From an uncultured Acidobacteriota bacterium (GTDB taxonomy: Bacteria; Acidobacteriota; UBA6911), in the NCBI GenBank assembly GCA_964441405.1, contig CAYTYP010000013.1:23779-87778 (forward strand): DNA of 64,000 bases. Reading direction: 5' to 3'. Position 1 is the stretch's first letter, and each line of letters starts with the position of its first letter. Below, piece by piece: positions 18,966 through 39,922 of this stretch. The notes under the pieces are model-generated. The model was given only the letters and a program-made list of their open reading frames with translations. It did no database searches and had not been told where the DNA came from. A program made the position numbers and the translations under genes.

Positions 18966-20162
18966 GTGAGCCTCAATCATTCACGAAGACAGTTTTTACA
19001 GGCAGGCCTTGCCCTTCCGGCGGCCGGTCTGGTTTCATCGGAACTCCCGAAATCGACGCCAAAAACATCGTCCAAATCCAAATCGGCGACCGGGCGGGCT
19101 TTCGTTTCGAAATCGGAAGCGCCGGCAGGAATCGTTTATAGAACTCTGGGCAAAACAGGATTGAAAGTTTCGGGCGTTGGCTATGGCATTGGATTCAATC
19201 CGGTCCCTGAGGTGGTGGCGCGCGCTATAGATTTGGGCGTCAATTATTTTGATACTTCGCGGGACTATAAAGATAGTGAGTTGGTTTTCTCGAAATTAAT
19301 CAAGGGCAGAAGAGACAAAGTTCATATCGCTACAAAATCAGGCAAGAGAAAAAAAGCCGATATCCTGAACGACCTGGACACAAGCCTCAAAACTTTAGGA
19401 ACGGACTATGTGGACATCTGGCATATGCACGCCTGTGATGCGCCGTCAGCTATTCCGGATGAAGCCCTGGAAGCGATGGTGCAATGCAAGAAATCGGGGA
19501 AAGCGCGTTTTATCGGTTTCAGCTGCCATGATCCGAATGCCATGGTCGACTTTCTTATAAAAACCAAGGCCTTCGATGTTATGCAGACCACGTACAGTTG
19601 GCCTATTGGTTCATACTATCGGGATGAGGCGGTAAAGAAATTGCATAATGCGGGGATTGGGGTCATCGCCATGAAGGTAGTGGTAGGATTGACCGGCTTG
19701 CATATATCAAAATTTGACAATCCCCCGGCCAGCAAAGAACCCGAAGGGCCTCTTGCCGGTATCAAATGGGTTTTGAAAAATCCTGCCATCGGGACAACAG
19801 TTCCATTCATGCAGAAAATTTCCGAGCTCGAAATGAATATACGGGCCATGACGGAACCTTTTACCCCGGCAGACGAAAAGCTCCTCTATGTCATGAATGA
19901 GCAGATACGTCCGCTGTATTGCCGGATGTGTTATGAGTGCAAGGGACAATGCCCGCAGGGGATGCCTGTTACCGACGTGTTGCGCTTCCTGGCTTATAAC
20001 GACTTCGGAGGCAACTATTATCAGGGACTGGCGAATTTCAGGAATTTGCCTTCCGAAATTCGTAATTTACATTGCAGTGATTGTTCTTCCTGCGCCATTA
20101 AGTGTCCCAATGGAGTCGCCGTACGGGACCGACTGATGCGGGCGCAAGAGCTTTTTGCTTAG
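18966..20162 (+). CDS. Tat-exported aldo/keto reductase with C-terminal 2x[4Fe-4S] ferredoxin-like domain
   Basis: GTG start after AAGGAGG. SRRQFLQAG twin-arginine motif, an AKR core, and two CxxCxxCxxxCP motifs near the C-terminus. Confidence 0.7.
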   Translation: MSLNHSRRQFLQAGLALPAAGLVSSELPKSTPKTSSKSKSATGRAFVSKSEAPAGIVYRTLGKTGLKVSGVGYGIGFNPVPEVVARAIDLGVNYFDTSRDYKDSELVFSKLIKGRRDKVHIATKSGKRKKADILNDLDTSLKTLGTDYVDIWHMHACDAPSAIPDEALEAMVQCKKSGKARFIGFSCHDPNAMVDFLIKTKAFDVMQTTYSWPIGSYYRDEAVKKLHNAGIGVIAMKVVVGLTGLHISKFDNPPASKEPEGPLAGIKWVLKNPAIGTTVPFMQKISELEMNIRAMTEPFTPADEKLLYVMNEQIRPLYCRMCYECKGQCPQGMPVTDVLRFLAYNDFGGNYYQGLANFRNLPSEIRNLHCSDCSSCAIKCPNGVAVRDRLMRAQELFA

Positions 20163-20340: not shown

Positions 20341-21510
20341 ATGACGAATTTTTCTAAGTTTGATCGGATCCGGCGGCGGAACCTACGGTTTGTCGCTTTC
20401 CTTGCATTGTTCCTGTTCAGTGCGGCGGCCAATGCCATTGCCCAGGCCAAACCAAAGCCCGCCGGCCTGTCCGCTGTGGAATTCAGCCGGATGATTCGCA
20501 ATTTCTCAGAAGAGCCCGGCTATTTTTTCTCCGACAACTTTACCTCAAATGAAGATTCCTATTTGACCGTAGTAGATAAAATGCGGGAGTTGAAAGCGGC
20601 GGGGGGCGCCTATATCGGAGTCGGGCCCGAACAGAATTTCACCTATATAGCTAAAATTCGGCCGCGGATTGCTTTTATCGTGGATATCCGCCGCCAGGCG
20701 ATGATCCAGCATTTGATGTACAAAGCTATTTTTCATCTTTCACCTACGCGCGCGGAATTTCTTTCTAAATTGCTAAGCCTGCCTTTGGATGCGAAAGCGC
20801 CTGGAGCCCACGATTCCATTAATAATATTCTCCAGTATTTTTCCAAGGTTTCGCCCAATAGAAAGGCTTACACCTCCAACCTGGCAGCCATTGCCAAGAC
20901 TATCAAAGAGAATTTTCATTTCCCCCTTTCTCCGGAAGACTATGAAAGTCTCGAATACGTTTATCAAAACTTTTACAGCCGGGGCTTTAACATCGGATTC
21001 GATGTGGACGACATGGGCGGACGCTTCGGGCATTTGCCCAATCTGAAGGAAATCCTTGCTCAAGAAGATTTGAAGGGTAAACAGGGAAATTTCCTTGCCG
21101 TCGTTGAAGATTATAATTTCGTGCGTGATTTGCAGGAACAAAATATGGTTATCCCGATCGTGGGGGACTTTGCCGGGAAAAAGGCATTGGCGATGATTGC
21201 GGACTACCTGCGCAAAAACAAATACACCCTTACGGTTTTTTATCTCTCCAATGTTGAAATAGTGCTATTGGAATGGAACGATCAACACATGTTTTCCGAT
21301 TTCGTGGACAATGTGAGGAAGCTGCCGTTTAATGACAAGAGCTTGCTCATCCGTTCCACGTTTGCATACTATGGACAGCCGACAACCCTGCCCGGTTATG
21401 CTCTTTGCACGATGCTTCAGAGCCTGCCCGTTTTCCTGCGCGATTTTGATCAGGGCCGGTATTTCTCTTATCGCCAGTTAATCAGAACGCACTATATTTC
21501 GGCTTATTAG
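20341..21510 (+). CDS. hypothetical secreted protein
   Basis: 389-aa ORF with an N-terminal signal peptide (FLALFLFSAAANAIAQA). No recognisable family. Confidence 0.5.
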   Translation: MTNFSKFDRIRRRNLRFVAFLALFLFSAAANAIAQAKPKPAGLSAVEFSRMIRNFSEEPGYFFSDNFTSNEDSYLTVVDKMRELKAAGGAYIGVGPEQNFTYIAKIRPRIAFIVDIRRQAMIQHLMYKAIFHLSPTRAEFLSKLLSLPLDAKAPGAHDSINNILQYFSKVSPNRKAYTSNLAAIAKTIKENFHFPLSPEDYESLEYVYQNFYSRGFNIGFDVDDMGGRFGHLPNLKEILAQEDLKGKQGNFLAVVEDYNFVRDLQEQNMVIPIVGDFAGKKALAMIADYLRKNKYTLTVFYLSNVEIVLLEWNDQHMFSDFVDNVRKLPFNDKSLLIRSTFAYYGQPTTLPGYALCTMLQSLPVFLRDFDQGRYFSYRQLIRTHYISAY

Positions 21511-21743
21511 GAGGCCTATCCGGACAGCCGGCAAACGCTGTGAATTATTAGCGCAATTCCGGTAAATTATTATTTCTCTTGACGCAATCCGGAAAATCAA
21601 TTTAGGATTGGTATATCTAGAGGATCATTTCTCATAAAGCAAGGAAATCAGGAGTTTGTGATAATGAAAAGAGCTCTGTGGTGAGATAAATGACAGCGCT
21701 CGTCGTATATATAATAAACAGACTGTGAAAGAGGTGTCGTCCC

Positions 21744-22472
21744 ATGGCTGGAGACAAAAAGAAAGAAGATAAAAATGTTTCAAGGCGAGACTTTATGCGG
21801 GGCAGCGGTACTGCCCTAGCCGGAGGCGCCCTGACGGTTATTGCGACAACTACCCCGGTAGTTGCTGCGGATGAGCAGAAAAGCTTTCCGCTCTCAACAA
21901 AATATCTGGTTTATGATTCAAAACATTGCGCCGGTTGTTATGGCTGCATGATAGCCTGTTCCATGGCCCATGATGGGGAGGTCAGTTTTTCACTTTCCAG
22001 GATTCAAATGCACAGGGCAGTCCTCAATGAATATCCTGAAGACATTATCATACATGTGTGCAAGCAATGTCCTGAACCCCTCTGCGTGAAGTATTGTCCG
22101 ACAGGCGCTTGTCATATCAGCGCCGAAAACGGCAACATCAGAATGATCAATGCCGAAAAATGCATTGGTTGCCAGACTTGCATTAAAATGTGCCCGCAAA
22201 CTCCTCATCGCACCATTTGGAATCCTGTAGCGAAAAAATCGACGAAGTGCGATTTATGCACCAATACGCCCTTTTTTAACAAGAAAGGCGGCGTTGACGG
22301 AGCCCAGGCTTGTATTGAGGCTTGTCCCAAAAAAGTTCTAAAAGTCGTAGATAAACTTCCATTGGAAACTGGTGGATACGAAGTTGACCTGGCGCCTCCT
22401 GCTCCCAAAGGCGGATTCGGCGGATTCGGTGGACCCGGTGGAGCTAAACCTAAACCCAAAGCAGGGATCTAA
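21744..22472 (+). CDS. Tat-signal 4x[4Fe-4S] ferredoxin-type electron-transfer subunit (AorA-like)
   Basis: SRRDFMRGSG twin-arginine motif, multiple CxxCxxCxxxCP motifs and a Gly-rich C-terminal tail. Immediately upstream of the AOR gene. Confidence 0.75.
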   Translation: MAGDKKKEDKNVSRRDFMRGSGTALAGGALTVIATTTPVVAADEQKSFPLSTKYLVYDSKHCAGCYGCMIACSMAHDGEVSFSLSRIQMHRAVLNEYPEDIIIHVCKQCPEPLCVKYCPTGACHISAENGNIRMINAEKCIGCQTCIKMCPQTPHRTIWNPVAKKSTKCDLCTNTPFFNKKGGVDGAQACIEACPKKVLKVVDKLPLETGGYEVDLAPPAPKGGFGGFGGPGGAKPKPKAGI

Positions 22473-22492
22473 AGGAAAAGGAGGAAAATATT

Positions 22493-24494
22493 ATGGCAAC
22501 GCCAGGATTCGGTGGAAAAATTTTATTAGTTGACCTTTCAACCAAGCAAATAACAAGACTGGATACCGACAAATATGCAATGTATGGTGGCGGTCATGGC
22601 ACCTCCACAGCCATTTTCTGGGAATTTAGCGTGGCTCCGGGAGAATGGGATCTTCAAGACGCCTTTCATCACAGGAATTCCGTTTGCCGCCCGTACCAGC
22701 GTCTCGGGAATGTCTCCCCAGTTCTATCCAATTCAGTGGTGGAGTCACAGCAATTTTGGCGGCACGTTTTCTACGATGCTCAAATTGGCCGGCTGGGACG
22801 GCGTGGCTGTGATAGGCAAAGCGGACTCTCCGGTGTACATCAATATTGTTGACGATAAAGTCACGATAGAAAACGCCAGGGATTTATGGGGCATGACGAC
22901 ATGGAAGTGCCAGGAGGAAATCTGGAAAAAATCCGGCGTTCGCTACGGAATGGATTGGCAGCAATTGGATGGCGGTTTTACGTTGCAAAGACCTGCAATT
23001 GTAACGATGGGAGCTGCCGGTGAGAATATGACACGAGTTGCTTCCCTCGTGCATGGCGGCGGCAGCGGCGCGGGCCAGGGCGGATTTGGCGGCGTTTTCG
23101 GATCTAAAAACCTGAAAGCAGTCGCGGTTGTAGGCTCCGGCAGCATCAAAATAGCCGATCCTAAAGCGCTGGTGGATGCCAAAGAAAAATATTTCCGCGG
23201 CGGCGGTGGCGGTGGCGGGTTCGGCGGCGGCGCAGCAGATATTTCATCGTGTTGCGCGGGTTGCGGCATGGGCAGCAGAATGTGCCACAACCGAAACCGG
23301 GCTTACAGCGCCGATTCCGATGATTGCGCGGAATCGACTTGGTTCTCAATTACGAAAGAACAGTCCAACGGCGTGCAACTCCCGCAAGATATTAACAAAA
23401 AAGGGACCGATATCATTCAGCAGTTCGGGATCAATGGCATGGAAACCTGTTTCCAGGGTCCCATGTCATTTTCGACTTCTCATAATAAGGACTTCCCTAT
23501 CCAGCCGAATATTCCTGCCTACTCAGCGCTGGGCTGGTACATGATGAAGATGTATGAAATGAAGATAATCGGCCCCGGCACCAAGTTCGATACGGCGCCG
23601 CTCCCAATGGATAAATTCCCAAGCCAGGAATTCATGGAAATTTATGGACGAGCGATCGCAAACCGCGAAGGCTTTGGCAAGCTCCTCGGGGAAGGGACTG
23701 CCCGCCTTGCTGAAGCGCTTGGAAGAACGGATGACTTCAATACACTGGCCCGACAGACTATGTGGGGATTTATGGATCACTGGTCCCTGCCTGGAGTTGA
23801 ATGGGCTTACGGCAATCTGCTCGATTCCAGGGATATCAACAGCCACGATATCACTTGGGGACGAGTAGGAGCAGATGCTGCACCCACTGTGAAAGCCTAT
23901 GCAGCCGGGACGTTAAGGAACGAACCGCTATGGTTCGATTATACCTGGCAGGGAGATCAGGCTTATAAAACCGGAATTTATTCCAAATACAAAGCCGAAT
24001 GGGTCGCCTGGCATCAGCATTACTGGAACTATTATAAAGAATCAGTGGGTTACTGCGATTGGGGATATTGCCAACTCAACAACGGACGCACTCCTACCGC
24101 CGAACCTACATTTCTCAATGCCATCACCGGAAGAAATCATTCCTTCAATGACGGCCTGGAAATCGGCCGGCGCGCCTGGACTCTGAAGCGGGCCATTTTC
24201 GTAATGCAGGGCAGGCACAAAAAGATGGAGAATTTCTCGGGATATCATTACAGGCCCGGAGCCTCCTATTGCGGATATTCCACAACACTGCCCATACTCA
24301 ACGGCGATAAATGGGAATTCCAAAATTGCAAGGAGCTCTACTTCTCCAGAGAAGGGGTCGATCAGTTCAAAACCCATTTCTATAACGTAGAAGGCTGGAA
24401 TCCCGATTCCGGCTATCCGACGGGAAAGACTCTTGGAGATCTGGGTCTGAAGCATGTTGCGGATCATCTCAAGAAGAACAACAAGCTTGGATAA
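22493..24494 (+). pseudogene. tungsten aldehyde:ferredoxin oxidoreductase (AOR family) catalytic subunit, +1 frameshifted
   Basis: The AOR N-terminal domain (GKILLVDLSTKQITRLDT...YGGGHGTSTAIFWEF) reads in frame 2 from the ATG at 22493, which has a strong RBS. From about 22645 the AOR homology (NGIFKTPFITGIP...SHSNFGGTFSTMLKLAGWDGVAVIGKA, DWGYC) continues in frame 0 to 24494. Confidence 0.75.
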
Positions 24495-24518
24495 GCTTTA
24501 ACATCCAAAACTTTGAAG

Positions 24519-24556
24519 GCCGCCACGAATGCAACGAATTCGTGGCGGCTTTTTTG
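24519..24556 (+). terminator. rho-independent terminator
   Basis: Perfect 12-bp stem GCCGCCACGAAT/ATTCGTGGCGGC with a 7-nt loop, followed by TTTTTTG. Sits 25 nt after the AOR stop. Confidence 0.8.
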
Positions 24557-24587
24557 TTGTCGGCTTGTTCCCAGGAAGGAAAATATT

Positions 24588-26018
24588 ATGCAGTTATTCG
24601 GCGAATACGATGTGGTTGTTGTCGGCGGAGGAACTTCCGGAGTAGCGGCGGCTATCGCATCCGCGCGCGCCGGGGCCAAAACCATACTGATCGAACGGCT
24701 GGGCGTGCTTGGCGGACAGATGAACGTGTCCGGCCCTCCCGGATTCGCCTACGCCTATATGTTCAACCCGCGCTGCGAACAGATCATCGGCGGCATCATG
24801 GAAGAAACTCACAGCCGTTTGCTGAAGGAGGGTCACGCCTGGCCGCATGCCACGCCGGATTTTCGAATAGGATATAGCTTTTCTTTAGTCGATCCGGATT
24901 ATTGGGGACTTTTGATTTTTGAGATGATGGATGAATCCGGCGTGAACCTGCTGTTGCATTCGCTGGCAGTCGACGTTTTGAAAAAAGACAATTCCGTCCT
25001 TGGAGTTGTTGTTGAGAATCCTTCGGGCAGACAGTCTGTTTTGGGCAAGGTTATTATCGATTGCACGGGCGAGGGCGAAATATCCGCCCGCGCCGGCGCT
25101 TTGTTCGAACAGGTTTCCAAAGACCAGCTCGAGCCGCATACCATTTCCTTTACGGTGGACGGCGTGGACTGGGATAAGGTTCTGCAATACGTCAGGGAAA
25201 ACGCCGAATATGAATTCAATCCCATGACGCATCCTTATCTGAACTGGACCCGGGAACAGATCGTTGAAAGAATCCGGCAGGTGAAAGACATCACTGAAAT
25301 AAGCAACTTTATGGGTTATTACTCCATAAGGGATAAAGCTTTGGCCGCCGGGGAATGGCATCCGTTCAGCGGTTTGGGTTTTTTTATCATGCCCAGAGAC
25401 AACGGAAGATTCCAGGCGCATTTCCAGCATTCTTCCCAAGTAGGCAATGCGGATCCCACGGATGTAAGAGACTTGACTTATTGTGAAGTCGAGTGCAGAA
25501 AACAGGTGAGCATGGCGCTGAAGTTTATCAAAAAATATATGCCCGGATTTGAAAACTCCTATTTGACGAGAATGTGCCCGGAACTGAGAATACGCGAGAG
25601 CAGAAGAATCATGGGCGACTACATTCTGACAAAGCAGGACGTTGCAGAAGCTCAAAAATTCAAGGATGTCATAGGCAAAAGCTCATTCTCGTCGGGCGCC
25701 AAACACGTCGCGACAAGCGAGACAATATCTTATGAGGGCATCGTTTATCCCAAAGATGGAGGTTCCTACGACATACCCTATCGATGCCTCGTTCCAAAAG
25801 TGATCGATAATCTGCTGGTAGCCGGGAAAGCCATCTCCACCGACAGGGATTCCTACGCCAGGTTTCTGCAGGAAACGATGGTGACCGGGCAGGCTGCAGG
25901 AATCGCCGCTGCGATCTGCGCCCGGAAAGGCATTACTCCGCGAGAATTGGAGCAGGACGTCTCGGAATTGCAGGAAATCCTTATCAAGCAGGGCGCCATA
26001 CTGTACGGCACGCACTAG
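24588..26018 (+). CDS. FAD-dependent oxidoreductase (AorC-like FAD subunit candidate)
   Basis: VVVVGGGTSGVAAAIASARAGAKT dinucleotide-binding motif. ATG at 24588 preceded by AGGAAGGA. The alternative start at 24513 would overlap the terminator. Confidence 0.7.
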   Translation: MQLFGEYDVVVVGGGTSGVAAAIASARAGAKTILIERLGVLGGQMNVSGPPGFAYAYMFNPRCEQIIGGIMEETHSRLLKEGHAWPHATPDFRIGYSFSLVDPDYWGLLIFEMMDESGVNLLLHSLAVDVLKKDNSVLGVVVENPSGRQSVLGKVIIDCTGEGEISARAGALFEQVSKDQLEPHTISFTVDGVDWDKVLQYVRENAEYEFNPMTHPYLNWTREQIVERIRQVKDITEISNFMGYYSIRDKALAAGEWHPFSGLGFFIMPRDNGRFQAHFQHSSQVGNADPTDVRDLTYCEVECRKQVSMALKFIKKYMPGFENSYLTRMCPELRIRESRRIMGDYILTKQDVAEAQKFKDVIGKSSFSSGAKHVATSETISYEGIVYPKDGGSYDIPYRCLVPKVIDNLLVAGKAISTDRDSYARFLQETMVTGQAAGIAAAICARKGITPRELEQDVSELQEILIKQGAILYGTH

Positions 26019-26139
26019 AGTTGCCGCACTCCAAATATCGGTATTGGCCTACCAGACTGCTTTGGGGTAATGCTCGCGGATGCGAAGATCTTTGGTAATG
26101 AGCGGATCAGAATCCAGGGATGCCTGGGCAACGATGATT

Positions 26140-26370
26140 CTATCGAAAGGATCCCTGGTCCAACCTAGAGTTTCTGCCAATTTCGATTAAATCGTCCAGA
26201 TCGCCTGAAAATACATCAGGATGCTTATGCAGATTGTCGAATTTATCCGGCGGCTCCAGAGAAATAATTTTAAACTTTCTTCCCTTGGATTCGATTTCAA
26301 CGGACTGGCCTGTTAGAGCTGCCTTATCCAGAATCTTGAACAGATTTTTTCGTAGATTGGTTGCTTTCAT
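26140..26370 (-). CDS. Phd/YefM-family antitoxin (orphan)
   Basis: MKATNLRKNLFKILDKAALTGQSVEIESKGRKFKII fits the Phd/YefM N-terminal pattern. Confidence 0.5.
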   Translation of the reverse strand: MKATNLRKNLFKILDKAALTGQSVEIESKGRKFKIISLEPPDKFDNLHKHPDVFSGDLDDLIEIGRNSRLDQGSFR

Positions 26371-26436
26371 ACTCGCTGACTCCATCGACAATACATGTAC
26401 AATAAAAGATCAAGCAATGCGTACATGTCAAATATT

Positions 26437-26856
26437 TCACGTCAGGATGAATTGAGGCTCCAGGCAATATACAAGCACTTGTGTGATTTTCATGAAATGA
26501 GCATCAGTGGTTAACACTGCCAGTCCGTGCTGCATGGCGTTTGCTGCGATCCAGATGTCGTTGGTCGGCGTTGGCGAGCCGGCTTCCCAGAGAGCGTTCA
26601 GAATAAAAGCATACCTTTCGGATGTCTCTGCATCGATCGGAAGGATTGCGACGCGAGGCGATGAGATAAAGCGCTGCAGATATCCTTCGTTCTTCCCGCC
26701 CTGGCGCCCTTTTCCGAAACCGGACCGCAATTCGCCCAATACGATTGGATTTAAATAAATCTCCTTTGCGCGCTGGAGGTGTTTTTGTACTCCATCATGG
26801 CCTCTCAGTAATGCGGAATATGCGGACGTGTCCACCAGAATTCTCGTCATTTCCAC
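26437..26856 (-). CDS. vapC: PIN-domain ribonuclease toxin (VapC)
   Basis: ILVDTSAY start, then acidic residues spaced as in a PIN domain. Start overlaps the upstream antitoxin gene. Confidence 0.7.
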   Translation of the reverse strand: MEMTRILVDTSAYSALLRGHDGVQKHLQRAKEIYLNPIVLGELRSGFGKGRQGGKNEGYLQRFISSPRVAILPIDAETSERYAFILNALWEAGSPTPTNDIWIAANAMQHGLAVLTTDAHFMKITQVLVYCLEPQFILT

Positions 26857-27104
26857 AGATCTCTTTCAATAGAACGCTGCCTGACTAAGTTCTTATCAAA
26901 AGCGTCCGCTTCTTGTTTGCTCCAAACTCCGGCCAGATCATCCAGATCATGGTGTTCAGACGCCTTCGAGGAAGAAGGAATGCCTGCTTGTTCTTCGAGT
27001 AAATCAATCACAGCCTTATTCTGGCTTAATTTCTTCGTACGCATCCGATCGTTTATCACTCGATTGAGAGCGGGCGGGATTTTTCTAAGAGTAACCGTTT
27101 TCAA
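26847..27104 (-). CDS. VapB-type antitoxin (ribbon-helix-helix/AbrB-like)
   Basis: 85-aa ORF with a 10-bp overlap onto the vapC start. TLRKIPPALNRVINDRM N-terminus. Confidence 0.5.
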   Translation of the reverse strand: MKTVTLRKIPPALNRVINDRMRTKKLSQNKAVIDLLEEQAGIPSSSKASEHHDLDDLAGVWSKQEADAFDKNLVRQRSIERDLWK

Positions 27105-27273
27105 TGTCGTTCTCCCGGCTTATGCATCATTCATGCATCATTATGATGCACATTGTAGCAATATCCTTTATTTTTAACAAGCGAGGAATAGTCCTGCAAC
27201 CCAATCAACTTGACGTGAGAATGGGCAGGGGCTAGGATCGTGATGTGGGGTTTTTCAACTTAGAGATTGCGGG

Positions 27274-28092
27274 GTGCTTACTATGTCCTTCGTATTTATT
27301 CGGGGCGGCGGCGACCTCGCCAGCGGGGTTGCCCTTCGCTTGCATCGTTCCGGTCTGCCGGTGATTATCGCCGAGTTGCCGGAACCGCTGGCAGTGCGTA
27401 GGCGAGTTTCTTTCGCTTCAGCTATTTATGACGGCAGCATCCGGGTGGAAGATAGCCTTGCTCGCCGGGTTGACGATCCTATAGACAACCCGTCAATCAA
27501 ACAGATTATTGCTGAAGGGCAAATCCCTGTCCTGGTAGATCCGGATGGAGATTATATAAAAATTCTGAAGCCCAAGGTTGTGGTCGACGCCCGCATGCTG
27601 AAACACCAAGTGGAACGTCACCCGGGCCCGGAACAACTGCTGATTGGATTAGGCTCCGGATTCGTTGCCGGGGTGAATTGCGATGCCGTTATTGAAACCA
27701 ACCGGGGCAATTCTATGGGCCGCGTCCTATGGAAGGGCGCTTCCGAACAAAGCGCCGACAGTCCCGCAACAGTAGCCGGGCAATTGGAGGCGCACATTCT
27801 GCTGGCGCCGGTCGATGGCGTAGTCGAGACCTACGCCGAAATTGGCGATCACATAATCCCGGGACAGTCCATCGCACAGGTCAACGAACATTTTGTCAAT
27901 GCTACATTCAGTGGCATTCTGCGTGGATTGATCTATTCCGGATTGACGGTCAAAGCAGGCATGAGGATCGGAGAACTCGATCCGCGTGATGATCCTCGTC
28001 TATGTACGCAGGTTTCAGATAAAGCCATTGCAGTGGGAGGAGGCGTTTTAGAAGCCATCTCCTCAAGAATCGAATTATCGGAGTTTATATAA
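27274..28092 (+). CDS. XdhC/YqeB-family molybdenum-hydroxylase maturation accessory protein
   Basis: Rossmann-like FIRGGGDLASGVA N-terminus. Lies directly upstream of the 2Fe-2S/MoCo/FAD subunit genes. Confidence 0.5.
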   Translation: MLTMSFVFIRGGGDLASGVALRLHRSGLPVIIAELPEPLAVRRRVSFASAIYDGSIRVEDSLARRVDDPIDNPSIKQIIAEGQIPVLVDPDGDYIKILKPKVVVDARMLKHQVERHPGPEQLLIGLGSGFVAGVNCDAVIETNRGNSMGRVLWKGASEQSADSPATVAGQLEAHILLAPVDGVVETYAEIGDHIIPGQSIAQVNEHFVNATFSGILRGLIYSGLTVKAGMRIGELDPRDDPRLCTQVSDKAIAVGGGVLEAISSRIELSEFI

Positions 28093-28097
28093 TAGGA

Positions 28098-28598
28098 ATG
28101 AAGCCAGCCAGATCAATAAATTTGAAAGTAAACGGCCAAACCATCGAATTGGATATCGGCAAAAAACCTGGTCAAATCGATCCGTCCGATACCCTGATCC
28201 ACACTCTGCGGGAGACGCTCGGGCTGACAGGAACAAAATTTTCCTGCGGTCAGGGCGCTTGCGGGATTTGCACCGTTATCATGGATTCCAAGGCTGTCCT
28301 TGCCTGTAAAATCCTGACCATCGAATGTGATGGAAAAGAAATCACAACGATCGAAGGTCTGAGAGATCAAAAAACCGGAGCGCTCCATCCGCTGCAACAG
28401 GCGTTTGTCGACTATTCCGCCTTTCAATGCGGTTTTTGTACGCCTGGAATGATTATGACTGCCAAAGCGTTCCTCGATGAACATCCCCATCCTGCCGAAA
28501 ACGAGGTCCAAGACGCGCTTGCTGGCAATTTTTGCCGATGTGTCAGCCACTATCAGGCTTTCAAGGCTGTGATGTCGGTTGCAGATAAGGGGCGATAG
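28098..28598 (+). CDS. (2Fe-2S)-binding small subunit of molybdenum hydroxylase (CoxS/XdhC-small type)
   Basis: FSCGQGACGICTV and CGFCTPGMIM cysteine motifs. Confidence 0.85.
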   Translation: MKPARSINLKVNGQTIELDIGKKPGQIDPSDTLIHTLRETLGLTGTKFSCGQGACGICTVIMDSKAVLACKILTIECDGKEITTIEGLRDQKTGALHPLQQAFVDYSAFQCGFCTPGMIMTAKAFLDEHPHPAENEVQDALAGNFCRCVSHYQAFKAVMSVADKGR

Positions 28599-28600
28599 CC

Positions 28601-30868
28601 ATGGGCAAGGATTATCGCTACATCGGCAAATCGGCGCCCCGGCGCGACGCGACGGAAATCGTTACCGGTTCCGTGCAATATCTGGATGACGTGAAGTTCC
28701 AGAACCTTGTCTATGGAAAGGCGCTGAGGAGCCCGTACGCTCACGCCAACATTAAAAAGATAGATAAGAGCAAGGCCGAAGCGCTGCCCGGCGTGTTGGC
28801 CGTGGTCGCCTGGGAAGACATCCCGGACTGGAGAGGCGGCACTCCGCGCATAGTTCGGGTGCTGGATAAAAAAGTCCGTTTTGTCGGCGATGCTGTCGCG
28901 CTGGTCGCCGCGACAACGGAGAAAATTGCAGAAGAGGCGTTGAGCCTTATTGAGGTCGAATACGAAGTTCTGCCTGCGGTGTTCAATATAGACGCCGCTC
29001 TCAAGCCGGATGCCCCTCTTCTTTACGAGGAATTAAAAAGCAACATCCTTCCGGGCGGAACGCCCATATATGGCCCGAATTGCCTTCAAGGCGTCGTGCA
29101 TGGAGATGTCGATAAAGGCTTTTCCGAAGCGGATGTGATTGCGGAGGGGACTTTCGGTTACGAGAATATTCCCAACGCCCTTCCTCCTGAATCGATAGGC
29201 GCTGTAGCCGTCTGGGAGCCGCCGGACAGGGCGACCATCTACGGAACCAGCCAGGCGCCCTACATGGACAAGGTTACGCTCTTTCACGTATTCAACCGTA
29301 AGTTTGAAATCCGCAGCATCGGACATCATGTCGGCGGCAGTTTTGGCACCAAATTTACCTGCTGGCAAGTCCAGGCCTATGCAATCATACTGGCGCGTGC
29401 GACGGGGCGGCCGGTTAAAATCATGTTTACAAAAGAAGAGCACATGGCCGCGTTCGCCTTGCGCATCGGATCCCGCATACACGCCAAGGTCGGGATAAAA
29501 AAAGACGGATCCATCACCGCAATCCAGGGCGCATGGCATGTGGACACCGGCAGCAATTCCTTTACCACGCAATGCCAGGTGGCGGTCGGGTCCGCCGAGC
29601 TTATGATCATGGCCCAGTGTCCCAACTGGGATTTGAAAAGCGCCATTGTAGCTACCAACAGAAACCCCTCGAGCGCCACAAGGGGATTTGGCGGGCAGGA
29701 ACTGGAATGTTCCTTCGTTCCTGTCTTGAATATGGCCATGGCAAAAGCCGAACTCGATCCGTTGGAAGTGTTCAAAAAGAACTTTGTCAAACCGGGCGGA
29801 GGATATTACTGGCGCGATGGCCTCTGGTATAACTACCGCGGAATTGATTTCACCAAAACCATGGATCGAGGAGCCGAGCGGTTCGGGTGGAAAGATAAAT
29901 GGAAAGGCTGGCTGACCCCGACATCGGTGGATGGTCCGAAACGGCGCGGAGTCGGGGTGGGCGTTCATGGCAATGCGGATATTGGCGAGGATGCAGCGGA
30001 AGCCTACGTGCAGCTTGGCTATAACGGGACTGCCACCATTTTTCTTTGCTTTTCAGAGCATGGGACCGGTCAGAAGTCGAACTACCCCAAATTAGTGGCC
30101 GAAGTGCTCCAGATGCCGCCGGAGCGCATTTCGATGTCTCCTGCCGATACGCTCGTAACTCCTTTCGAATTCGGCCCGGTCGGTTCCAGAGGGACGTACG
30201 CCATAGGAAGCGCGGTCATTAATGCCGCTGAAAATGCAAAAAAACAACTGCTTGAGATGGCGGCGCCCAAGCTCGGCGTGGCCCCCCAGGATCTTGATAC
30301 GGCGGATGGAGTTATTTTTGTAAAGGGAACTCCCGAAAAAGGAATGAAATGGAGAATGATGGGCAATGACAGGACCATTATGGGATATGGCCGGTTTGAG
30401 CCCGATTTCACCATGTGCAATTGCTTCATGAGCTTTGTTGAAGTTGAGGTGGATTCGGAAACCGGCAAGGTGACGCTGGTGCGCGTCGTGAATGCTACCG
30501 ATATAGGGCAGATAATCGATCCTGCAGGGCTCGACAACCAGCTCAACGGATGTTGGGGCTCCGCCGGAATCGACAGCGCGATTTTTGAAGAATCCATCGT
30601 AGACCGCCGGACCGGTCATCTGGTCAACGCCAACCTGATTGATTATAAATGGAGGACTTTCAGCGAATTGCCCACAGTGGACAACGTCGTGCTCGAAACG
30701 CCTTTCCCCAGCCATCGTTTCCATGCGATCGGCATTGGCGAAATTGTCACGGCGCCCGGTCCGTTTGCCGCGCTCATGGCAGTGTCCAACGCAGTCGGCA
30801 GCTGGTTGCATGAATATCCCGCAACCCCGGACAGGGTGCTCCAAGCTTTTTCCAGAAGAGTTTCATGA
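28601..30868 (+). CDS. molybdopterin-binding large subunit of xanthine dehydrogenase/aldehyde oxidase/CO dehydrogenase family
   Basis: 755 aa. YIGKSAPRRDATEIVTGSVQYLDD N-terminus and MoCo-domain motifs. Start is coupled to the small subunit. Confidence 0.85.
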   Translation: MGKDYRYIGKSAPRRDATEIVTGSVQYLDDVKFQNLVYGKALRSPYAHANIKKIDKSKAEALPGVLAVVAWEDIPDWRGGTPRIVRVLDKKVRFVGDAVALVAATTEKIAEEALSLIEVEYEVLPAVFNIDAALKPDAPLLYEELKSNILPGGTPIYGPNCLQGVVHGDVDKGFSEADVIAEGTFGYENIPNALPPESIGAVAVWEPPDRATIYGTSQAPYMDKVTLFHVFNRKFEIRSIGHHVGGSFGTKFTCWQVQAYAIILARATGRPVKIMFTKEEHMAAFALRIGSRIHAKVGIKKDGSITAIQGAWHVDTGSNSFTTQCQVAVGSAELMIMAQCPNWDLKSAIVATNRNPSSATRGFGGQELECSFVPVLNMAMAKAELDPLEVFKKNFVKPGGGYYWRDGLWYNYRGIDFTKTMDRGAERFGWKDKWKGWLTPTSVDGPKRRGVGVGVHGNADIGEDAAEAYVQLGYNGTATIFLCFSEHGTGQKSNYPKLVAEVLQMPPERISMSPADTLVTPFEFGPVGSRGTYAIGSAVINAAENAKKQLLEMAAPKLGVAPQDLDTADGVIFVKGTPEKGMKWRMMGNDRTIMGYGRFEPDFTMCNCFMSFVEVEVDSETGKVTLVRVVNATDIGQIIDPAGLDNQLNGCWGSAGIDSAIFEESIVDRRTGHLVNANLIDYKWRTFSELPTVDNVVLETPFPSHRFHAIGIGEIVTAPGPFAALMAVSNAVGSWLHEYPATPDRVLQAFSRRVS

Positions 30869-31941
30869 TGAAATCTTTCAAACATTACAGCGCCCGATCG
30901 CTCAAGGAAGCCGCCGCTCTTCTTGCGAAACACAATGGGAAAGCCAGGATAATTGCAGGCGGTACGGACTTGCTTGGCTTAATGAGAGATGGATGCGGTC
31001 CTGATTTTCCCGAAGCCTTGATCGATATAAAAACGATCAAAAATCTTAATTACATCAAGGTCGGCGTTCGCGGGGTCCGGATAGGCGCACTGACCAGACT
31101 GGCGGATATCGTCAAGTTTCCGGAGATCCGACAGGATTATCCGCTGCTATCCGAAGCGGCGCATTCGGTGGCCAGTCCCAACATCAGGAATATGGCTACG
31201 GTGGGGGGCAATCTCGCCCAGGATGTGCGTTGCTGGTACTATCGGTATCCACAACAAATCGGCGGCCCTATCGTCTGCCTGCGCAAGGGGGGAAAAATCT
31301 GCAGCGCCATCGCAGGCGACAACCGGTATCATTCCATTTTCGGCGCAGCGCCTGTCGCTGAACGCCACACAAGCATCGATAAGGAAGATGTTTCCGGTTC
31401 AAGCCCGATCGAAATTAAAACGGAAGCGCGCCGCCGCCTCAAATACGGATGCCTGGCCATAGGACCGTCCGATCTGGCGCTTGCTTTGGTCGCCCTGGAT
31501 GCGAGCGTAGTGACAAACAGAAGAACGCTTGGAGCGCAGGCCTTTTTTACGGCAAGTGCGACGAGTTCTACCGTCCTGGACAAGGACGAATTGATCAAGG
31601 AAATTCGAATTCCCAAACCCCCCAAGGGATCCCGCCAGAGCTATAAGAAATTCACATTGAGAAAGCCGGTTGATTTTGCTCTGGTAAGCGTGGCCGCCGT
31701 GATCACTTCTAAAAAAGGAGTATGCTCCGACGCGCGCATTGCGCTTGGAGCCGTTGCGCCCTCTCCCCTTCGGGCAAGCGCTGCGGAGGCGGCGATCAAG
31801 GGGATGCCGCTGGATGAAAATTGCGCCGCAGAGGCCGCACAACTGGCGCTTGCGGACGCCGCGCCTCTTTCCATGAACGCCTATAAAATTGAAATCGCCA
31901 GAACCTTGGTGAAAAGATCTATCCTGGGTCAATCAGGATAA
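30865..31941 (+). CDS. FAD-binding medium subunit of molybdenum hydroxylase (CoxM-like), extended
   Basis: ARIIAGGTDLL FAD-binding motif. 4-bp overlap with the large-subunit stop. About 70 aa longer than a typical medium subunit. Confidence 0.8.
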   Translation: MMKSFKHYSARSLKEAAALLAKHNGKARIIAGGTDLLGLMRDGCGPDFPEALIDIKTIKNLNYIKVGVRGVRIGALTRLADIVKFPEIRQDYPLLSEAAHSVASPNIRNMATVGGNLAQDVRCWYYRYPQQIGGPIVCLRKGGKICSAIAGDNRYHSIFGAAPVAERHTSIDKEDVSGSSPIEIKTEARRRLKYGCLAIGPSDLALALVALDASVVTNRRTLGAQAFFTASATSSTVLDKDELIKEIRIPKPPKGSRQSYKKFTLRKPVDFALVSVAAVITSKKGVCSDARIALGAVAPSPLRASAAEAAIKGMPLDENCAAEAAQLALADAAPLSMNAYKIEIARTLVKRSILGQSG

Positions 31942-31977
31942 AATAAGGCAGCGTCCCCTATTTAGGAGGAGAAGAGC

Positions 31978-34542: not shown

Positions 34543-35862
34543 ATGAACGACAAATTGACTGCGGAGCAGAAGCGGGAAAACAGATTTCAACAGTGGTTGA
34601 ACCCGAGAGGCGTTGCATTCAATAACGCACAGGCGAAAAATGCATATCAGGACCGGGTCCGGCGTTTTATCCAAGTTATTAAACTCGAAAAACCGGATCG
34701 CGTGCCCGTCATTCTGCCGGCCGGATCGTTTCCCCTTTACTACGCCGGCATGACATTGAAAGAGGCCATGCAGGACAATGAACGGACCTGCCAGGCGTAC
34801 CGGAAATTCATGGCCGAATTTGAATCCGACACGATCAGCAGCCCCATGATGACGCCTTGCGGAAAAGCTTCCGAAATAGTCAACAGTTTGATGTTGAAGT
34901 GGCCCGGGCATGGATTGCCGGACGATACCTCGATGGTCCAATTCGTTGAAGGCGAGTATATGAAAGCGGATGAGTACGATCATTTTATCGAGGATCTCTC
35001 CGATTTCATCCTTCGCCGCTACCTTCCCCGCAGCCTTGGGGCGCTTGCTCCTTTCGCGGATTTCTCGCCCACTCCATTCGTTCTTGGAATGGCGAACAGG
35101 TTCCTGGGCCCGGCCGTTATGCCGCAAGTCCAGGCGGCGTACAAGGCTATTATTGATTACGGCGTGGAAACAGCGAAGTGGCAGGGGCCGATGATGAAGT
35201 TCCACTTTGAGGCGACTGCCGCAGGATATCCGTCATTTTTCGGAGGCCAGGCTCATGCCCCGTTCGACATACTCGCGGACACTTTGCGCGGAACCAAGGG
35301 CGTCATCCTGGATATGTATCGCCAGCCGGAAAAACTTCTGCAAGCCATCAGGAAAGTGACTCCCATGAATATTGCTTGCGGCCTCGAAGGCGTCAACATG
35401 ACCGGCACGCCCATCGTGTTTTTCGCCCTGCATAAAGGGGACGACACTTTCATGTCCAATGCGCAATATGAAAAATTCTATTGGCCGACGTTCCGGGAAG
35501 TCATTCTTGGATTGATTGAAGACGGAGCCACGCCTCTGCTGTTTGCGGAAGGGAGATATGACAACCGCCTGGAGATCATCAAGGACCTGCCGAAAGGCAA
35601 AGTGATCTGGCACTTCGACAGGACGGATATGTTCCGGGCCAAGAAGATTCTGGGCGACAACGCCTGCATCGCCGGGAACGTTCCCGCTTCATTGCTGTGC
35701 ACAGGCACTCCCAAGGAGGTCAAGGAATATTGCCGTAAGTTGATTGAGGTTTGCGGCGAAGGCGGAGGATTCATCCTGACCGGCGGCGCCAGCATCGACA
35801 AAGGCGATCCGAACGCCCTGCGCGCCATGACCGAAGCCGTCATGGAATACAGCGCACGTTAG
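34543..35862 (+). CDS. uroporphyrinogen-decarboxylase (URO-D) family protein (methyltransferase-like)
   Basis: 439-aa ORF with a URO-D-like fold signature. Tentative. Confidence 0.5.
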   Translation: MNDKLTAEQKRENRFQQWLNPRGVAFNNAQAKNAYQDRVRRFIQVIKLEKPDRVPVILPAGSFPLYYAGMTLKEAMQDNERTCQAYRKFMAEFESDTISSPMMTPCGKASEIVNSLMLKWPGHGLPDDTSMVQFVEGEYMKADEYDHFIEDLSDFILRRYLPRSLGALAPFADFSPTPFVLGMANRFLGPAVMPQVQAAYKAIIDYGVETAKWQGPMMKFHFEATAAGYPSFFGGQAHAPFDILADTLRGTKGVILDMYRQPEKLLQAIRKVTPMNIACGLEGVNMTGTPIVFFALHKGDDTFMSNAQYEKFYWPTFREVILGLIEDGATPLLFAEGRYDNRLEIIKDLPKGKVIWHFDRTDMFRAKKILGDNACIAGNVPASLLCTGTPKEVKEYCRKLIEVCGEGGGFILTGGASIDKGDPNALRAMTEAVMEYSAR

Positions 35863-35903
35863 CCAGATCATCGTTTTATCTTTTCAGTCGCAAGGAGGTT
35901 TCC

Positions 35904-36287
35904 ATGGTCGATGATAAGAAGACGGTGCTGTTGGTGGATGACGATGAAGACATGCTGGAGCAGACCCGCATCGTTGTTGAACAAGAGTATAGAGTAGAGT
36001 TCGCTCACAGCGGAGAAGAAGCTCTCGAAAAGCTCGGTAAAAATCATTACGACTGTATCGTGATGGATGTCATGATGAAGACGCTGAGCGACGGGCTCGA
36101 TACGGCAAAAAAAATTAAAGAAAATCCTGCAACGCAAGCAATTCCGATCATTCTATTGACCGGCGTCAACCAACACTTCGATTATCGCTCCCAGATTGAC
36201 GGAGACTTTTTCCCCAAGGATAGCTGGTTCAGCAAGCCGGTAGATCCGAAAAGGCTCATGGAAGAAATCAGAAAACAGGTTCAATAA
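35904..36287 (+). CDS. single-domain response regulator (CheY-like receiver)
   Basis: VLLVDDDEDM...DCIVMDVMM...LLTGV receiver motifs. AAGGAGG RBS before the ATG at 35904. Confidence 0.8.
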   Translation: MVDDKKTVLLVDDDEDMLEQTRIVVEQEYRVEFAHSGEEALEKLGKNHYDCIVMDVMMKTLSDGLDTAKKIKENPATQAIPIILLTGVNQHFDYRSQIDGDFFPKDSWFSKPVDPKRLMEEIRKQVQ

Positions 36288-36303
36288 AGTCAAGAAAGCG
36301 CGC

Positions 36304-38178
36304 ATGGATATTTGCCAGAAAGTGCTTTTTGTTGATGCAGGAACGTCTTATTACCGGATCAATCGATACAAGCTGGGTGATTTTTTTGGTCCTGTAGATC
36401 TTGGACTGCACCTGGCGGGAAAATACGACGGGCTCAATATTGGCATCGGTTTATTGGCCGGCTCCATTTTCCCCGGTTCCAACCGGCTCATCTTTACCGG
36501 TTTTTCTCCCTGCTGGGGAGGGTTTTATATCTCCTCTATGGGAGGCGCAGGCCTGATCTTTGAACAATTGGGCATTAATATGCTCTCGCTGGTGGGCAAG
36601 GCTCCGGCGCCATCCCTGCTTTATTTAAACCGCGTCCATGGAGAGGAAATTGAGGTTGAGATTTGCCCCATTGAGCTCAATGACATTTGGAAGTCCGGGC
36701 GTAAAGGCGTCTATAGCTTGATGGATTATGTTCTGGAGCGCTATGGCGAGCGCTACGCAACCGACCCCCGGATCCTCGCGACCGGACCGGCGGCTGCGGC
36801 GACCGATTTTGGCGCTATAGGCTCGGCGCCCATTTCCAACAACAAGCTTACTTATGTGGACACCTGGGCCGGCCGGGGCGGTTTTGGAACCAAGCTTCTG
36901 CAAAAACATGGGATTGCGGCAATCATTTATGGCGGAACCCATATCGACGAAGATTTTAAAGACAGGAAAGTCGCCGACAGCTGGTTTGAAGAACGATATC
37001 AACAGAAGATGGCTGCCAAGGACATTGAAGCTACCGCAAAATACAGGTTCGAACCTAAATTCGAAACGGGCGGAACGCTCGGCGTCAATTTTGCAACATT
37101 AGGCGGAAACCTGCTGTCTTTTAATTACACCAGCATCTTTCAAGAGGAAAGTGAGCGCCTGGAGCTGCACAAGCGCTTTATCGTCGAGCATTACCTGAAG
37201 CAATTTAACGATGAAACAATAAAAACCAAGCAGCAAAAAACCTGCGGCGAGCCCTGCGTTGCAGTCTGCAAAAAAAACAATGGCGAGTATAAGAAGGATT
37301 TTGAGCCCTACCAGGCGATGGGGCCATTAGCCGGCATCTTTGATCAGCGCGCCGCGGAGAAACTAAATCATCACGCCGATGCTTATGGATTTGACGCCAT
37401 CTCGGTGGGCGGAGTCCTTTCCTGGTTGATGGAATGCCTCTCCCGCAAAATTCTGACGCCGGCGGAATTGGGCGTATCCCGCACACCGCATTTTTCAGCC
37501 AAGGATTTTGATGTGACGGCCACTTCCATGCTTAACGCCGAGGTGGGAATTGAACTTCTGGATTCCATTATCTACAAGCGTGGGTTTATGAACCTGGAAG
37601 AAGGCGCGCGTAAGTTCGCCCGCAAGCTGGCAAGGGACAAAGGAGACGAGGTCCTCAATTCTTTCGTCTACACAGCTTATGCCCGGAAGGGATGGATGAC
37701 GCCCAACCAGTATTGGACCCCCGGAGTGCTTTCGCCCATGGTGATCATGGGGAAATATTATATGCATTATGGCGACGAATTTATCCCTCCCAGGGAACTG
37801 GGCAGAAAAAACGCCGCCCGGTTTAAAGGCGAATTGATACTCGACAACATGGGGATGTGCCGCTTTCACAGGAAATGGGCGGAGGAGATGATTCCCGATA
37901 TTATCGAATCGCTGTTTGGACTAAAAGAAAGTTATCTGCAAAACATTGCCATGACGGCAAGCCGTATCAACAGCCGCAATTCCTCCGTTTTTTGGGAAAG
38001 CGAACGCAACATGGATTTTGTCCGCACATTCCTGGAACGGGAGAAGAGGATAAAAAATACTCAGAACCCGGAACTGGACAAGTGGATGGATCTTTTCAGG
38101 AAAGACAAAAAGGAAGCGGCCCTAAGCTACTGGTATGAAATCCATAAAGGCGTTCAGGAATCGTTAAGGGAATTTTAA
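36304..38178 (+). CDS. divergent aldehyde:ferredoxin oxidoreductase (AOR) family protein
   Basis: AOR-like N-terminal domain (KVLFVDAGTSYYRINRY, GFSPCWGGFYISSMGGAGLIFEQLG), a CGEPCVAVC Cys cluster and a DNMGMC pterin-binding-type motif. Confidence 0.6.
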   Translation: MDICQKVLFVDAGTSYYRINRYKLGDFFGPVDLGLHLAGKYDGLNIGIGLLAGSIFPGSNRLIFTGFSPCWGGFYISSMGGAGLIFEQLGINMLSLVGKAPAPSLLYLNRVHGEEIEVEICPIELNDIWKSGRKGVYSLMDYVLERYGERYATDPRILATGPAAAATDFGAIGSAPISNNKLTYVDTWAGRGGFGTKLLQKHGIAAIIYGGTHIDEDFKDRKVADSWFEERYQQKMAAKDIEATAKYRFEPKFETGGTLGVNFATLGGNLLSFNYTSIFQEESERLELHKRFIVEHYLKQFNDETIKTKQQKTCGEPCVAVCKKNNGEYKKDFEPYQAMGPLAGIFDQRAAEKLNHHADAYGFDAISVGGVLSWLMECLSRKILTPAELGVSRTPHFSAKDFDVTATSMLNAEVGIELLDSIIYKRGFMNLEEGARKFARKLARDKGDEVLNSFVYTAYARKGWMTPNQYWTPGVLSPMVIMGKYYMHYGDEFIPPRELGRKNAARFKGELILDNMGMCRFHRKWAEEMIPDIIESLFGLKESYLQNIAMTASRINSRNSSVFWESERNMDFVRTFLEREKRIKNTQNPELDKWMDLFRKDKKEAALSYWYEIHKGVQESLREF

Positions 38179-38248
38179 TTGATCCACTTGCCCCGGAAGA
38201 CTTAGGTATATAATGCCTTATCGTCAAACCAAGCCAGGAGGCATCCCT

Positions 38249-39894: not shown

Positions 39895-39922
39895 ATGCTT
39901 TTAAATTTTGGGCGGGGTTATT

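Follow-up and report, generated by a model that had tools for sequence, protein, structure and literature searches.

The window analyzed here is a 64,000-nucleotide stretch of DNA from an uncultured Acidobacteriota bacterium. Three co-directional genes named in the initial annotation were recovered in it, namely those of a protein with a twin-arginine (Tat) signal and four [4Fe-4S] motifs, a protein of the aldehyde oxidoreductase (AOR) family and a FAD_oxidored protein (Table 1). The large-subunit gene starts at an ATG at 22493, with a GGAGG ribosome-binding site upstream, 20 nt after the end of the FeS gene, and its product has no signal peptide of its own; in homologous loci, the FeS stop codon lies 15-25 nt ahead of the AOR start. 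The locus is flanked upstream by a gene for a DUF7790 protein and downstream by that of the soluble-looking FAD protein, neither of which is conserved across loci.

Table 1. Coordinates in the window of the features discussed in the text.
Feature	Position	Strand	Remarks
Small subunit, Tat-signal polyferredoxin (WorS-like)	21744..22472	+	16 Cys, four [4Fe-4S] motifs; gene intact
Twin-arginine motif S-R-R-D-F of the Tat signal	21780..21794	+	Read from the translation
AOR-family large-subunit gene, 5' part	22493..22669	+	Frame A, 59 codons, M1 to H59
Deletion junction (C/A)	22670..22671	+	41 nt missing relative to homologues; DNA alignments A2 and A4
Continuation of frame A to the stop codon, out of frame	22670..22852	+	Without protein homology
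AOR-family gene, 3' part	22671..24494	+	Frame B, T74-equivalent to stop, ~607 codons
Terminator-like hairpin, 16-bp stem and T-run	24515..24563	+	Downstream of the AOR stop codon, ahead of the FAD gene
FAD-dependent oxidoreductase (PF12831)	24588..26018	+	Full-length Pfam match, 9.5e-95
GAPOR-like member of the AOR superfamily (the "second AOR" of the initial annotation)	36304..38178	+	Intact ORF

The FeS subunit was assigned to Fer4 families by Pfam, and the TAT_signal model matched its residues 11-30 with an E value of 7.2e-4 and a score of 19.8 bits, just under the cut-off of 22.7. The SRRDF motif is followed by a hydrophobic stretch, and a [ST]RRxF motif was found in 61 of the 62 FeS genes that lie upstream of large-subunit homologues. 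Its NCBIfam matches were of the NrfC, YdhY and DmsB types, and BLASTP aligned it with YdhY (3e-23) and YdhX (3e-17). Among structures in the PDB, the best match was the FeS subunit of WOR5 (9e-15), with AorA (8c0z_C) also matched at 1.6e-10. The C-terminal tail of the protein is rich in Gly and Lys.

With respect to the large subunit, Pfam identified the domains of the AOR superfamily, AFOR_N (PF02730; 1.1e-34) and AFOR_C (PF01314; 9.8e-25), in two pieces. Positions 1-39 of AFOR_N were located in the frame starting at 22493, and positions 60-198 of AFOR_N together with AFOR_C in the ORF 22575-24494, which bears out the earlier suggestion that the gene is split over two frames and indicates that the downstream frame does have AOR homology. 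In the homologues, the gene is one ORF of 679-690 aa, with identities of up to 89-92%; for the 3' part, tblastn gave 88-92%. The 5' part aligns without gaps with residues 1-59 of an intact homologue (P0001) and of other homologues, the homology in frame A running through ...PGEWDLQDAFH to 22669, and that in frame B begins only at TGIPFAARTS (22671), with no further disruption in the 3' part (alignment A1). Alignment with AOR homologues, as had been proposed for locating the indel, placed the break between 22670 and 22671; 41 nt that each of the 11 closest loci has at this point are absent (DNA alignments A2 and A4).

The lost segment corresponds to 14 codons (P60-G73 of P0001) plus a frame shift, and its nucleotides specify P-x-N-M-V-F-L-M-T-G-A-V-S-G, which forms a conserved beta-strand and Gly-rich loop in the core of domain 1. 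These residues include strand 64-68 of the AlphaFold model and align with residues 55-68 of Pyrococcus furiosus AOR; across the family, N62 and G73 are invariant and P60 and G69 nearly so. Owing to the deletion at 22670/22671, the gene lacks an intact reading frame with the conserved domain-1 core. Translation from the native start would yield 59 correct residues followed by 60 nonsense residues, and as it stands the gene is a null allele. The missing 41 nt were sought elsewhere in the 64-kb window and were not present there; in a copy that kept them at the CATC/ACAGG junction, they would be expected to resemble CCAAGAATATGGTTTTCCTGATGACTGGAGCCGTATCGGGT.

The initial annotation had placed the switch at 22640-22650 and ascribed it to a +1 shift in a short G-run, that is, to a single-base indel in the GGGAGAATGGG run arising by sequencing error or mutation. 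The net frame change is indeed +1 and a G-rich run is present there. However, this run encodes P-G-E-W-D in frame and recurs unchanged in the closest relative (L010), frame A remains homologous for 25 nt beyond it, and a single-base indel cannot account for 14 missing conserved residues. The peptide NGIFKTPFI is simply what the codons for EWDLQDAFH give when they are read in another frame. The gene has instead lost 41 nt at a point 25-30 nt downstream of the G-run, and a single-base indel at that run, which is ruled out by DNA alignments A2 and A4, has a negligible probability. Thus, the disruption of the catalytic gene stands and recent pseudogenisation is a live explanation, whereas an error in the short G-run is not.

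Programmed recoding, in which ribosomal frameshifting or bypassing would give a full-length protein from the two frames, was also considered, and nothing beyond the presence of two overlapping frames speaks for it. The homologues are all single ORFs, the shift is not conserved, and the joined product would not be collinear with them, still lacking the 14 conserved core residues. One match in the search with the 119-aa product, P0121, did reach the out-of-frame tail, reading the same alternative frame of homologous DNA; it was rejected as a conserved-shift look-alike, since it carries a different frameshift and its contig copy is in three pieces. Recoding is therefore extremely improbable.

We then asked how the deletion may have come about. 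The rest of the gene looks healthy. Its dN/dS was 0.05-0.14, compared with 0.06-0.20 among intact homologues, and only one unique deviation was found at otherwise invariant columns. The relaxed selection and multiple lesions of an old decaying pseudogene were not seen, the lesion being single and the dN/dS like that of intact pairs. Because the rest of the gene looks healthy, the lesion is either very recent or an artefact of the assembly or of a variant. According to the latter explanation, the 41 nt would be absent only through an assembly or consensus artefact or through a rare variant picked by the assembler, and the real gene would be intact and functional. An artefact or minority allele fits the absence of a relaxed-selection signal and the intact partner gene equally well, and the undamaged remainder of the gene under normal purifying selection, together with the intact FeS gene and expression signals, is in its favor. 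Related genomes have 3-5 paralogues, and their frequent occurrence evidently makes the region difficult to assemble. Furthermore, two independent Logan assemblies fragment in the same region, suggesting a tangled assembly graph, and assembly errors have visibly disrupted copies in other metagenome-assembled genomes (L087, L079 and P0124 with P0077). The breaks in those copies, however, resemble long-read-style indels rather than clean 41-nt losses.

Several lines of evidence indicate that the deletion is probably real. A loss of 41 nt is atypical of platform errors, and none of the ~50 other large ORFs scanned in the 64 kb looked split. The window also matches independent Logan contigs, namely four short contigs from runs SRR8925802 and SRR8925769 that represent ~15 kb of it. 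Two of these (L083 and L084) are 100% identical to the window over 9.4 kb, so that the window is accurate where they align, and the other two encode an identical protein; the contigs end at about 21972 and restart at 24216, with the junction outside their span. In addition, both ends of the deleted segment are marked in L010 by an imperfect repeat, CCAAGAAT ... TCAGGAAT, and the deletion could possibly have arisen by slippage between such short imperfect direct repeats. Every k-mer that a de Bruijn assembler outputs comes from reads, and the repeat at the flanks, at most 8 nt long, would be far below any k, which argues against an artefact. Exact look-ups of the FeS protein and of the 119-aa and 639-aa products in public assemblies gave no match, and a wobble-tolerant pattern for the flanks found nothing in JGI metagenome contigs. 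A scan of GTDB genomes likewise yielded no match at 100%, so that the source genome is not one of the species representatives in that database. On balance, the artefact or rare variant is a serious but less probable explanation, and the deletion is most likely genuine and very recent, being fixed or segregating in the sampled population. Biologically, the finding itself is ordinary, a recent pseudogene or deletion allele of the usual kind.

To place the large subunit in its family, we used the AlphaFold model of P0001 (pTM 0.87), which shows a three-domain AOR fold. Foldseek with this model gave E values of 1e-23 to 3e-28 and TM-scores of 0.65-0.77 to FOR, BamB, AOR, WOR5 and AorB. The identity of the large subunit to each of the solved AORs is ~20%, AorB coming eighth in rank, and its match to 8c0z_A (E 3.1e-20) is confined to the N-terminal domain. 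Its only NCBIfam match was the YdhV model, which scored 185 bits where the cut-off is 868, and BLASTP against YdhV gave 34% identity within the N-terminal 240 aa, a match that does not surpass the one to archaeal AOR.

The cluster had been labelled AorABC-type, and it does share with AorABC of Aromatoleum aromaticum (Class III WOR; PDB 8C0Z; PMC6365974) the overall AOR fold, a four-cluster polyferredoxin as small subunit and the gene order of FeS subunit, pterin subunit and nearby flavoprotein. However, the label does not fit in several respects. The small subunit here carries a Tat signal, and the large subunit, ~19% identical to AorB, is no closer to it than to other solved AORs; true bacterial AORs share 54% identity or more, and a member of the AorB/AOR clade should reach about 50% or more with AorB (PMC6365974, Table 5). 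The third subunit, WorN/AorC, is a FAD/NAD(P)-binding protein of the IPR023753 (PF07992) type (PMC13328260), whereas the FAD protein here belongs to PF12831, with PF07992 reaching 23.5 bits over the N-terminal 40 aa against a cut-off of 26.1. This protein has a GxGxxG motif at its extreme N-terminus and no signal peptide; its PDB matches cover the N-terminal Rossmann motif only, and AorC is absent among the 60 matches listed. The MoaD-like genes aorD and aorE are absent from the locus, and a scan of about 50 window ORFs revealed no tupABC, modABC or moa/moe genes.

The arrangement of the FAD gene also differs from that of AorABC. The FAD ORF spans 24513-26018, with ATG 24588 as its likely start, and is parted from the AOR gene by a hairpin that is the only terminator-like site in 21400-26300. 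A hairpin with a T-run is conserved at the same place in L005, L031, L010 and L002, with differing stem sequences. A FAD homologue lies within 6 kb of the AOR gene in only 7 of 82 homologous loci, and a 570-aa gene intervenes in 5 of the 7. The FAD gene probably forms a transcription unit of its own rather than encoding a third subunit.

The ORF at 36304-38178, described earlier as a second, intact AOR, is indeed intact and belongs to the AOR superfamily, but the idea that it could compensate for the broken gene did not hold up. It matches the NCBIfam model GAPOR_Arch (1.1e-101; 341 bits, under the cut-off of 1300), has no FeS partner and is 23% identical to P0001 over 200 aa (E 1e-4), and it is not a paralogue within the clade of the broken gene. 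Judging from these matches, the GAPOR-like protein is unlikely to substitute for it.

Among known systems, the cluster, which would be that of an exported two-subunit enzyme, resembles the Tat-dependent, YdhV-like tungsten/molybdenum oxidoreductases of Class V, which have Tat-WorS and WorL and include E. coli YdhY/YdhV and C. somerae WOR41, and in the WOR classification, the Tat signal on the small subunit is the mark of this class (PMC13328260). In both, a twin-arginine small subunit with four [4Fe-4S] clusters is encoded directly upstream of a signal-less large subunit of the AOR family, and the FeS subunit here aligns with YdhY, N-terminal region included. The YdhV model as sole NCBIfam match of the large subunit is a further likeness, and Class V as a whole has no known function. 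In contrast, the resemblance to YdhV itself is restricted to the N-terminal region and well below the model cut-off, Gly-rich inserts are present, and the hosts, Acidobacteriota and Desulfobacterota, are not among the phyla listed for clade 41, which is that of YdhV. Class V enzymes have one or more additional membrane or respiratory subunits encoded nearby, and no evident membrane or cytochrome subunit adjoins the genes here. Pyrococcus furiosus WOR5/ASOR (Class II WorLS; PDB 6X1O) is likewise a heterodimer of a large subunit and a polyferredoxin, and it provides the closest structure to the FeS protein. However, WOR5 is cytoplasmic, ferredoxin-linked and without a Tat signal, and the large subunits are ~19% identical.

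The locus thus appears to encode a bicistronic FeS and pterin oxidoreductase, in which the Tat-signal polyferredoxin is followed by the AOR-family large subunit. By analogy with the YdhV type, both proteins would fold, acquire cofactors and reach the periplasm by joint export, and electrons from the substrate would there pass through five [4Fe-4S] clusters. Taken together, such a pair with a 41-bp deletion in the large-subunit gene and a separate FAD gene is the best joint explanation of the data, to which we assign a probability of roughly 0.6.

These results bear on the annotation of the locus. The cluster should carry neither the AorABC label nor that of a NAD-linked aldehyde oxidoreductase, and the entry for this copy ought to mark it as a pseudogene, or possibly a mis-assembly, resulting from a 41-bp deletion, for which a single-base "repair" would be wrong. 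As to the family, searches of the literature for Acidobacteria with Tat-AOR, and also for the two run accessions, found nothing. Somewhat short of an even chance, in our estimation, the FeS/AOR pair belongs to a deeply branching, uncharacterised group of periplasmic pterin oxidoreductases exported by Tat, multi-copy in Acidobacteriota and Desulfobacterota, as distant in sequence from every solved AOR-family enzyme as noted above and not obviously included in the published 92-clade WOR classification, and the substrate could possibly be no aldehyde, as is the case for BamB. If this is true, the broken copy would be one dispensable paralogue of an expanding family. The wider point is a modest one, namely that function-unassigned Tat-dependent enzymes of the AOR family reach Acidobacteriota and Desulfobacterota as a divergent multi-copy family.

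The FeS, AOR-family and FAD oxidoreductase genes assigned by the initial annotation to the same strand of this interval were all found there, and the AOR-family gene was confirmed by Pfam to be split over two frames, with AFOR_N 1-39 encoded in the frame of ATG 22493 (frame A) and AFOR_N 60-198 together with AFOR_C encoded in ORF 22575-24494 (frame B), but the frame change was neither at the proposed site (22640-22650) nor caused by a single-base indel. The spliced product matched more than 860 relatives, the best of which was 89% identical, and the full-length relatives, all of 679-707 aa, were 13-15 residues longer than the splice initially proposed. In a protein alignment, frame A homology persisted up to ...FWEFSVAPGEWDLQDAFH and frame B homology began only at TGIPFAARTSVSGMSPQ, the two parts being separated in every homologue by 14 residues with the consensus P-x-N-M-V-x-L-M-T-G-A-V-S-G. 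DNA alignments, with two metagenome contigs first and then with 11 loci, showed that the window lacks 41 nt as one clean block, so that the C at 22670 adjoins the A at 22671; the junction reads GCCTTTCATC before the break and ACAGGAATTCC after it, and the nearest relative, locus L010, reads CATC-CCAAGAATATGGTTTTCCTGATGACTGGAGCCGTATCGGGTT-CAGGAATTCC. The GGGAGAATGGG run previously suspected of a G-run error is in frame and identical in L010, and "NGIFKTPFI", previously taken as homology, is an out-of-frame reading of the EWDLQDAFH codons. The missing 41 nt was not found in the rest of the window. An imperfect direct repeat lies at both ends of the deleted segment in relatives (CCAAGAAT / TCAGGAAT in L010) and would be compatible with slipped-strand deletion as the origin. 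The window also has Phe at 22724-22726 (F in SPQFYPIQWW), compared with Cys (SPQCYP) in all 13 homologues of the large-subunit alignment, and this Phe is not unique in a wider 38-sequence alignment.

With the frameshifted 119-aa product as a query, one protein, P0121, matched into the nonsense tail; its contig carries the gene in three pieces with the shift at another point, and P0121 reads the same alternative frame. Recoding was excluded because the frameshift of the window gene has no conserved counterpart.

The deletion removes the equivalent of P60-G73 in the homologue P0001, a segment that aligned to residues 55-68 of P. furiosus AOR and includes the family-invariant N62 and G73 and the near-invariant P60 and G69; beta-strand 64-68 of domain 1 lies within this segment in an AlphaFold model (mean pLDDT 80.5, pTM 0.87). 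Translation from the native start yields 59 correct residues, then 60 nonsense residues and a stop at 22852, which makes the gene, as given in the sequence, a null allele. Pseudogenisation is possible, and the G-run error offered beside it was not supported.

Beyond the deletion, the AOR-family gene is undamaged. Among the columns that do not vary in 37 relatives it departs uniquely at one, a count that falls in the span shown by intact sequences, and its pairwise dN/dS against six close homologues was 0.05-0.14, compared with 0.06-0.20 for intact homologues among themselves. Because there is no decay beyond the deletion, the event is either very recent or not biological. We consider the 41-nt deletion to be real with a probability of about 0.6, as a loss of 41 nt is not typical of sequencing error, the window elsewhere is exact against independent short-read contigs (Logan contigs L083 and L084 being 100% identical to window 24216-30525 and 35772-38827), and no other split genes were seen among the ~50 ORFs scanned in the window. 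An artefact is the less likely reading; the absence of decay, the fragmentation of other assemblies in the same region and the paralogues commonly carried by relatives favour an artefact or a minority allele. Two further Logan contigs, L085 and L086, encode an identical DUF7790 protein and both end at ~21972, and none of those from runs SRR8925802 and SRR8925769 crosses 21972-24216; neither the expected gene products, looked up as exact sequences, nor the flank pattern, searched for in JGI contigs, gave a match. Other MAG copies of the FeS/AOR pair are in two or three pieces (L087 6001-7858; L079 6220-8095; P0124+P0077; L003 ~5268-5900), most of them on contigs whose names are of long-read style; they resemble assembly indels, so a frameshift seen in a public MAG copy of this family needs read support before it is given a biological meaning.

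Features of the window by position
Feature	Position	Strand	Remarks
Tat aldo/keto reductase	18966-20162		own Tat signal, C-terminal 4Fe-4S domain
FeS small subunit, 242 aa	21744-22472	+	SRRDF twin-arginine motif, 16 cysteines in four [4Fe-4S] motifs, Gly/Lys-rich tail
AOR-family gene start	ATG 22493	+	GGAGG ribosome-binding site upstream
FAD-dependent oxidoreductase, PF12831	ORF 24513-26018	+	Pfam
2Fe-2S subunit	28098		xanthine-dehydrogenase / CO-dehydrogenase family
Large subunits	28601, 31978, 39908		xanthine-dehydrogenase / CO-dehydrogenase family
FAD subunit	30865		xanthine-dehydrogenase / CO-dehydrogenase family
URO-D-like gene	34543-35862
GAPOR-like gene	36304-38178		intact
Tannase/feruloyl esterase	38213-39820
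Cas3	51669-54545
GSU0053 and GSU0054 family proteins	55459-59105
Cas4-Cas1 fusion	60772-62562
CRISPR array	62743 to window end		at least 17 repeats (ATTTCCGCGATTGAAAGATCGCGGCCCCATTGAAGC, ~72-nt period)

The AorABC label of the initial annotation was not upheld. The structural model of the large subunit was about equally near FOR, BamB, AOR, WOR1, WOR5 and AorB (TM-score 0.65-0.77, ~20% identity), with AorB ranking eighth, and its sequence matches to solved structures covered the N-terminal domain only. Its sole NCBIfam match was the YdhV model (185 bits, below the cut-off of 868), and BLASTP gave 34% over 240 aa with E. coli YdhV; the FeS protein was alignable to YdhY and YdhX and also to the WOR5 and AorA small subunits. 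In a classification from 2026, Class III (AorABC) comprises WorL, WorS and an IPR023753 FAD subunit (PMC13328260), whereas the FAD protein here is PF12831. This gene was rejected as a third subunit, being PF12831 and not PF07992, preceded by a terminator-like hairpin and rarely linked: it accompanies the FeS/AOR pair in 7/82 loci, with another gene intervening in five. The protein has no signal peptide and matched solved flavoproteins by the Rossmann motif alone; the position of its GxGxxG motif directly after ATG 24588 makes this codon the almost certain start. The sole terminator-like hairpin of the region (24515-24553, with a T-run; element 24515-24563) lies ahead of it, and a hairpin and T-run directly 3' of the AOR stop codon also occur in L005, L031, L010 and L002 with differing stems. 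The intervening gene (conserved, ~570 aa, weak UGSC match, starting ...LLDPRG.QERP..KLAPR) lies between the AOR and FAD genes in L002 (8268-9980), L010, L011, L012 and L020 and is not in the window, L005 or L031.

In ~60 of the 82 homologous loci the FeS gene immediately precedes the large-subunit gene, at a distance of 15-25 nt, and [ST]RRxF was present in 61/62 upstream FeS genes; the large subunit itself lacks a signal peptide. Class V combines WorL with a Tat-signal WorS, is periplasmic or membrane-associated and is of unknown function (PMC13328260). Sharing the Tat-signal small subunit paired with a large subunit, the pair is assigned from sequence as Class V-like under the operational rule of PMC13328260 and is a possible member of clade 41. 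Among the ~50 ORFs scanned in the window, none was a MoaD-like, tup, mod or moa gene. Low-complexity Gly-rich stretches occur at the FeS C-terminus (GGFGGFGGPGG, then a Lys/Pro-rich tail; 22410-22472) and between large-subunit domains 1 and 2 (RGGGGGGGFGGG; 23230-23265); both reappear in homologues as variable segments, and AlphaFold confidence is low there. The Tat aldo/keto reductase, two genes upstream of the pair, has a homologue of 78% identity upstream in L031 as well and could be another exported enzyme of carbonyl redox chemistry in the neighbourhood.

Elsewhere in the window, a type I-U / I-G style CRISPR-Cas locus spans 51669-64000. ORFs 62746-63210(-) and 63153-63671(-) within it are not genes but spurious reading frames through the array. 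After a Phd/YefM-like antitoxin gene (26140-26391, -) comes only a 43-aa ORF resembling the C-terminus of PIN/VapC toxins, apparently a toxin gene that has been truncated; this pair (26049-26391) adjoins an intact PIN toxin/antitoxin pair (26437-27104).

Compensation by the second AOR gene, as initially suggested, is not plausible, since that gene is GAPOR-like (341 bits to GAPOR_Arch), is 23% identical to the broken gene's family over 200 aa and has no FeS partner gene. It is surrounded by tannase/feruloyl esterase, URO-D-like and several xanthine-dehydrogenase / CO-dehydrogenase-family molybdoenzyme genes (27274-34392 and 39908-42382), and the region is possibly an island for the degradation of aromatic compounds or heterocycles. 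True paralogues of the broken gene number 3-5 per genome in relatives, and such paralogues elsewhere in the genome would be plausible substitutes. Taken together, the break is an ordinary deletion that inactivates the gene, or else an artefact or deletion allele, and the enzyme pair is of a type already known, though uncharacterised.
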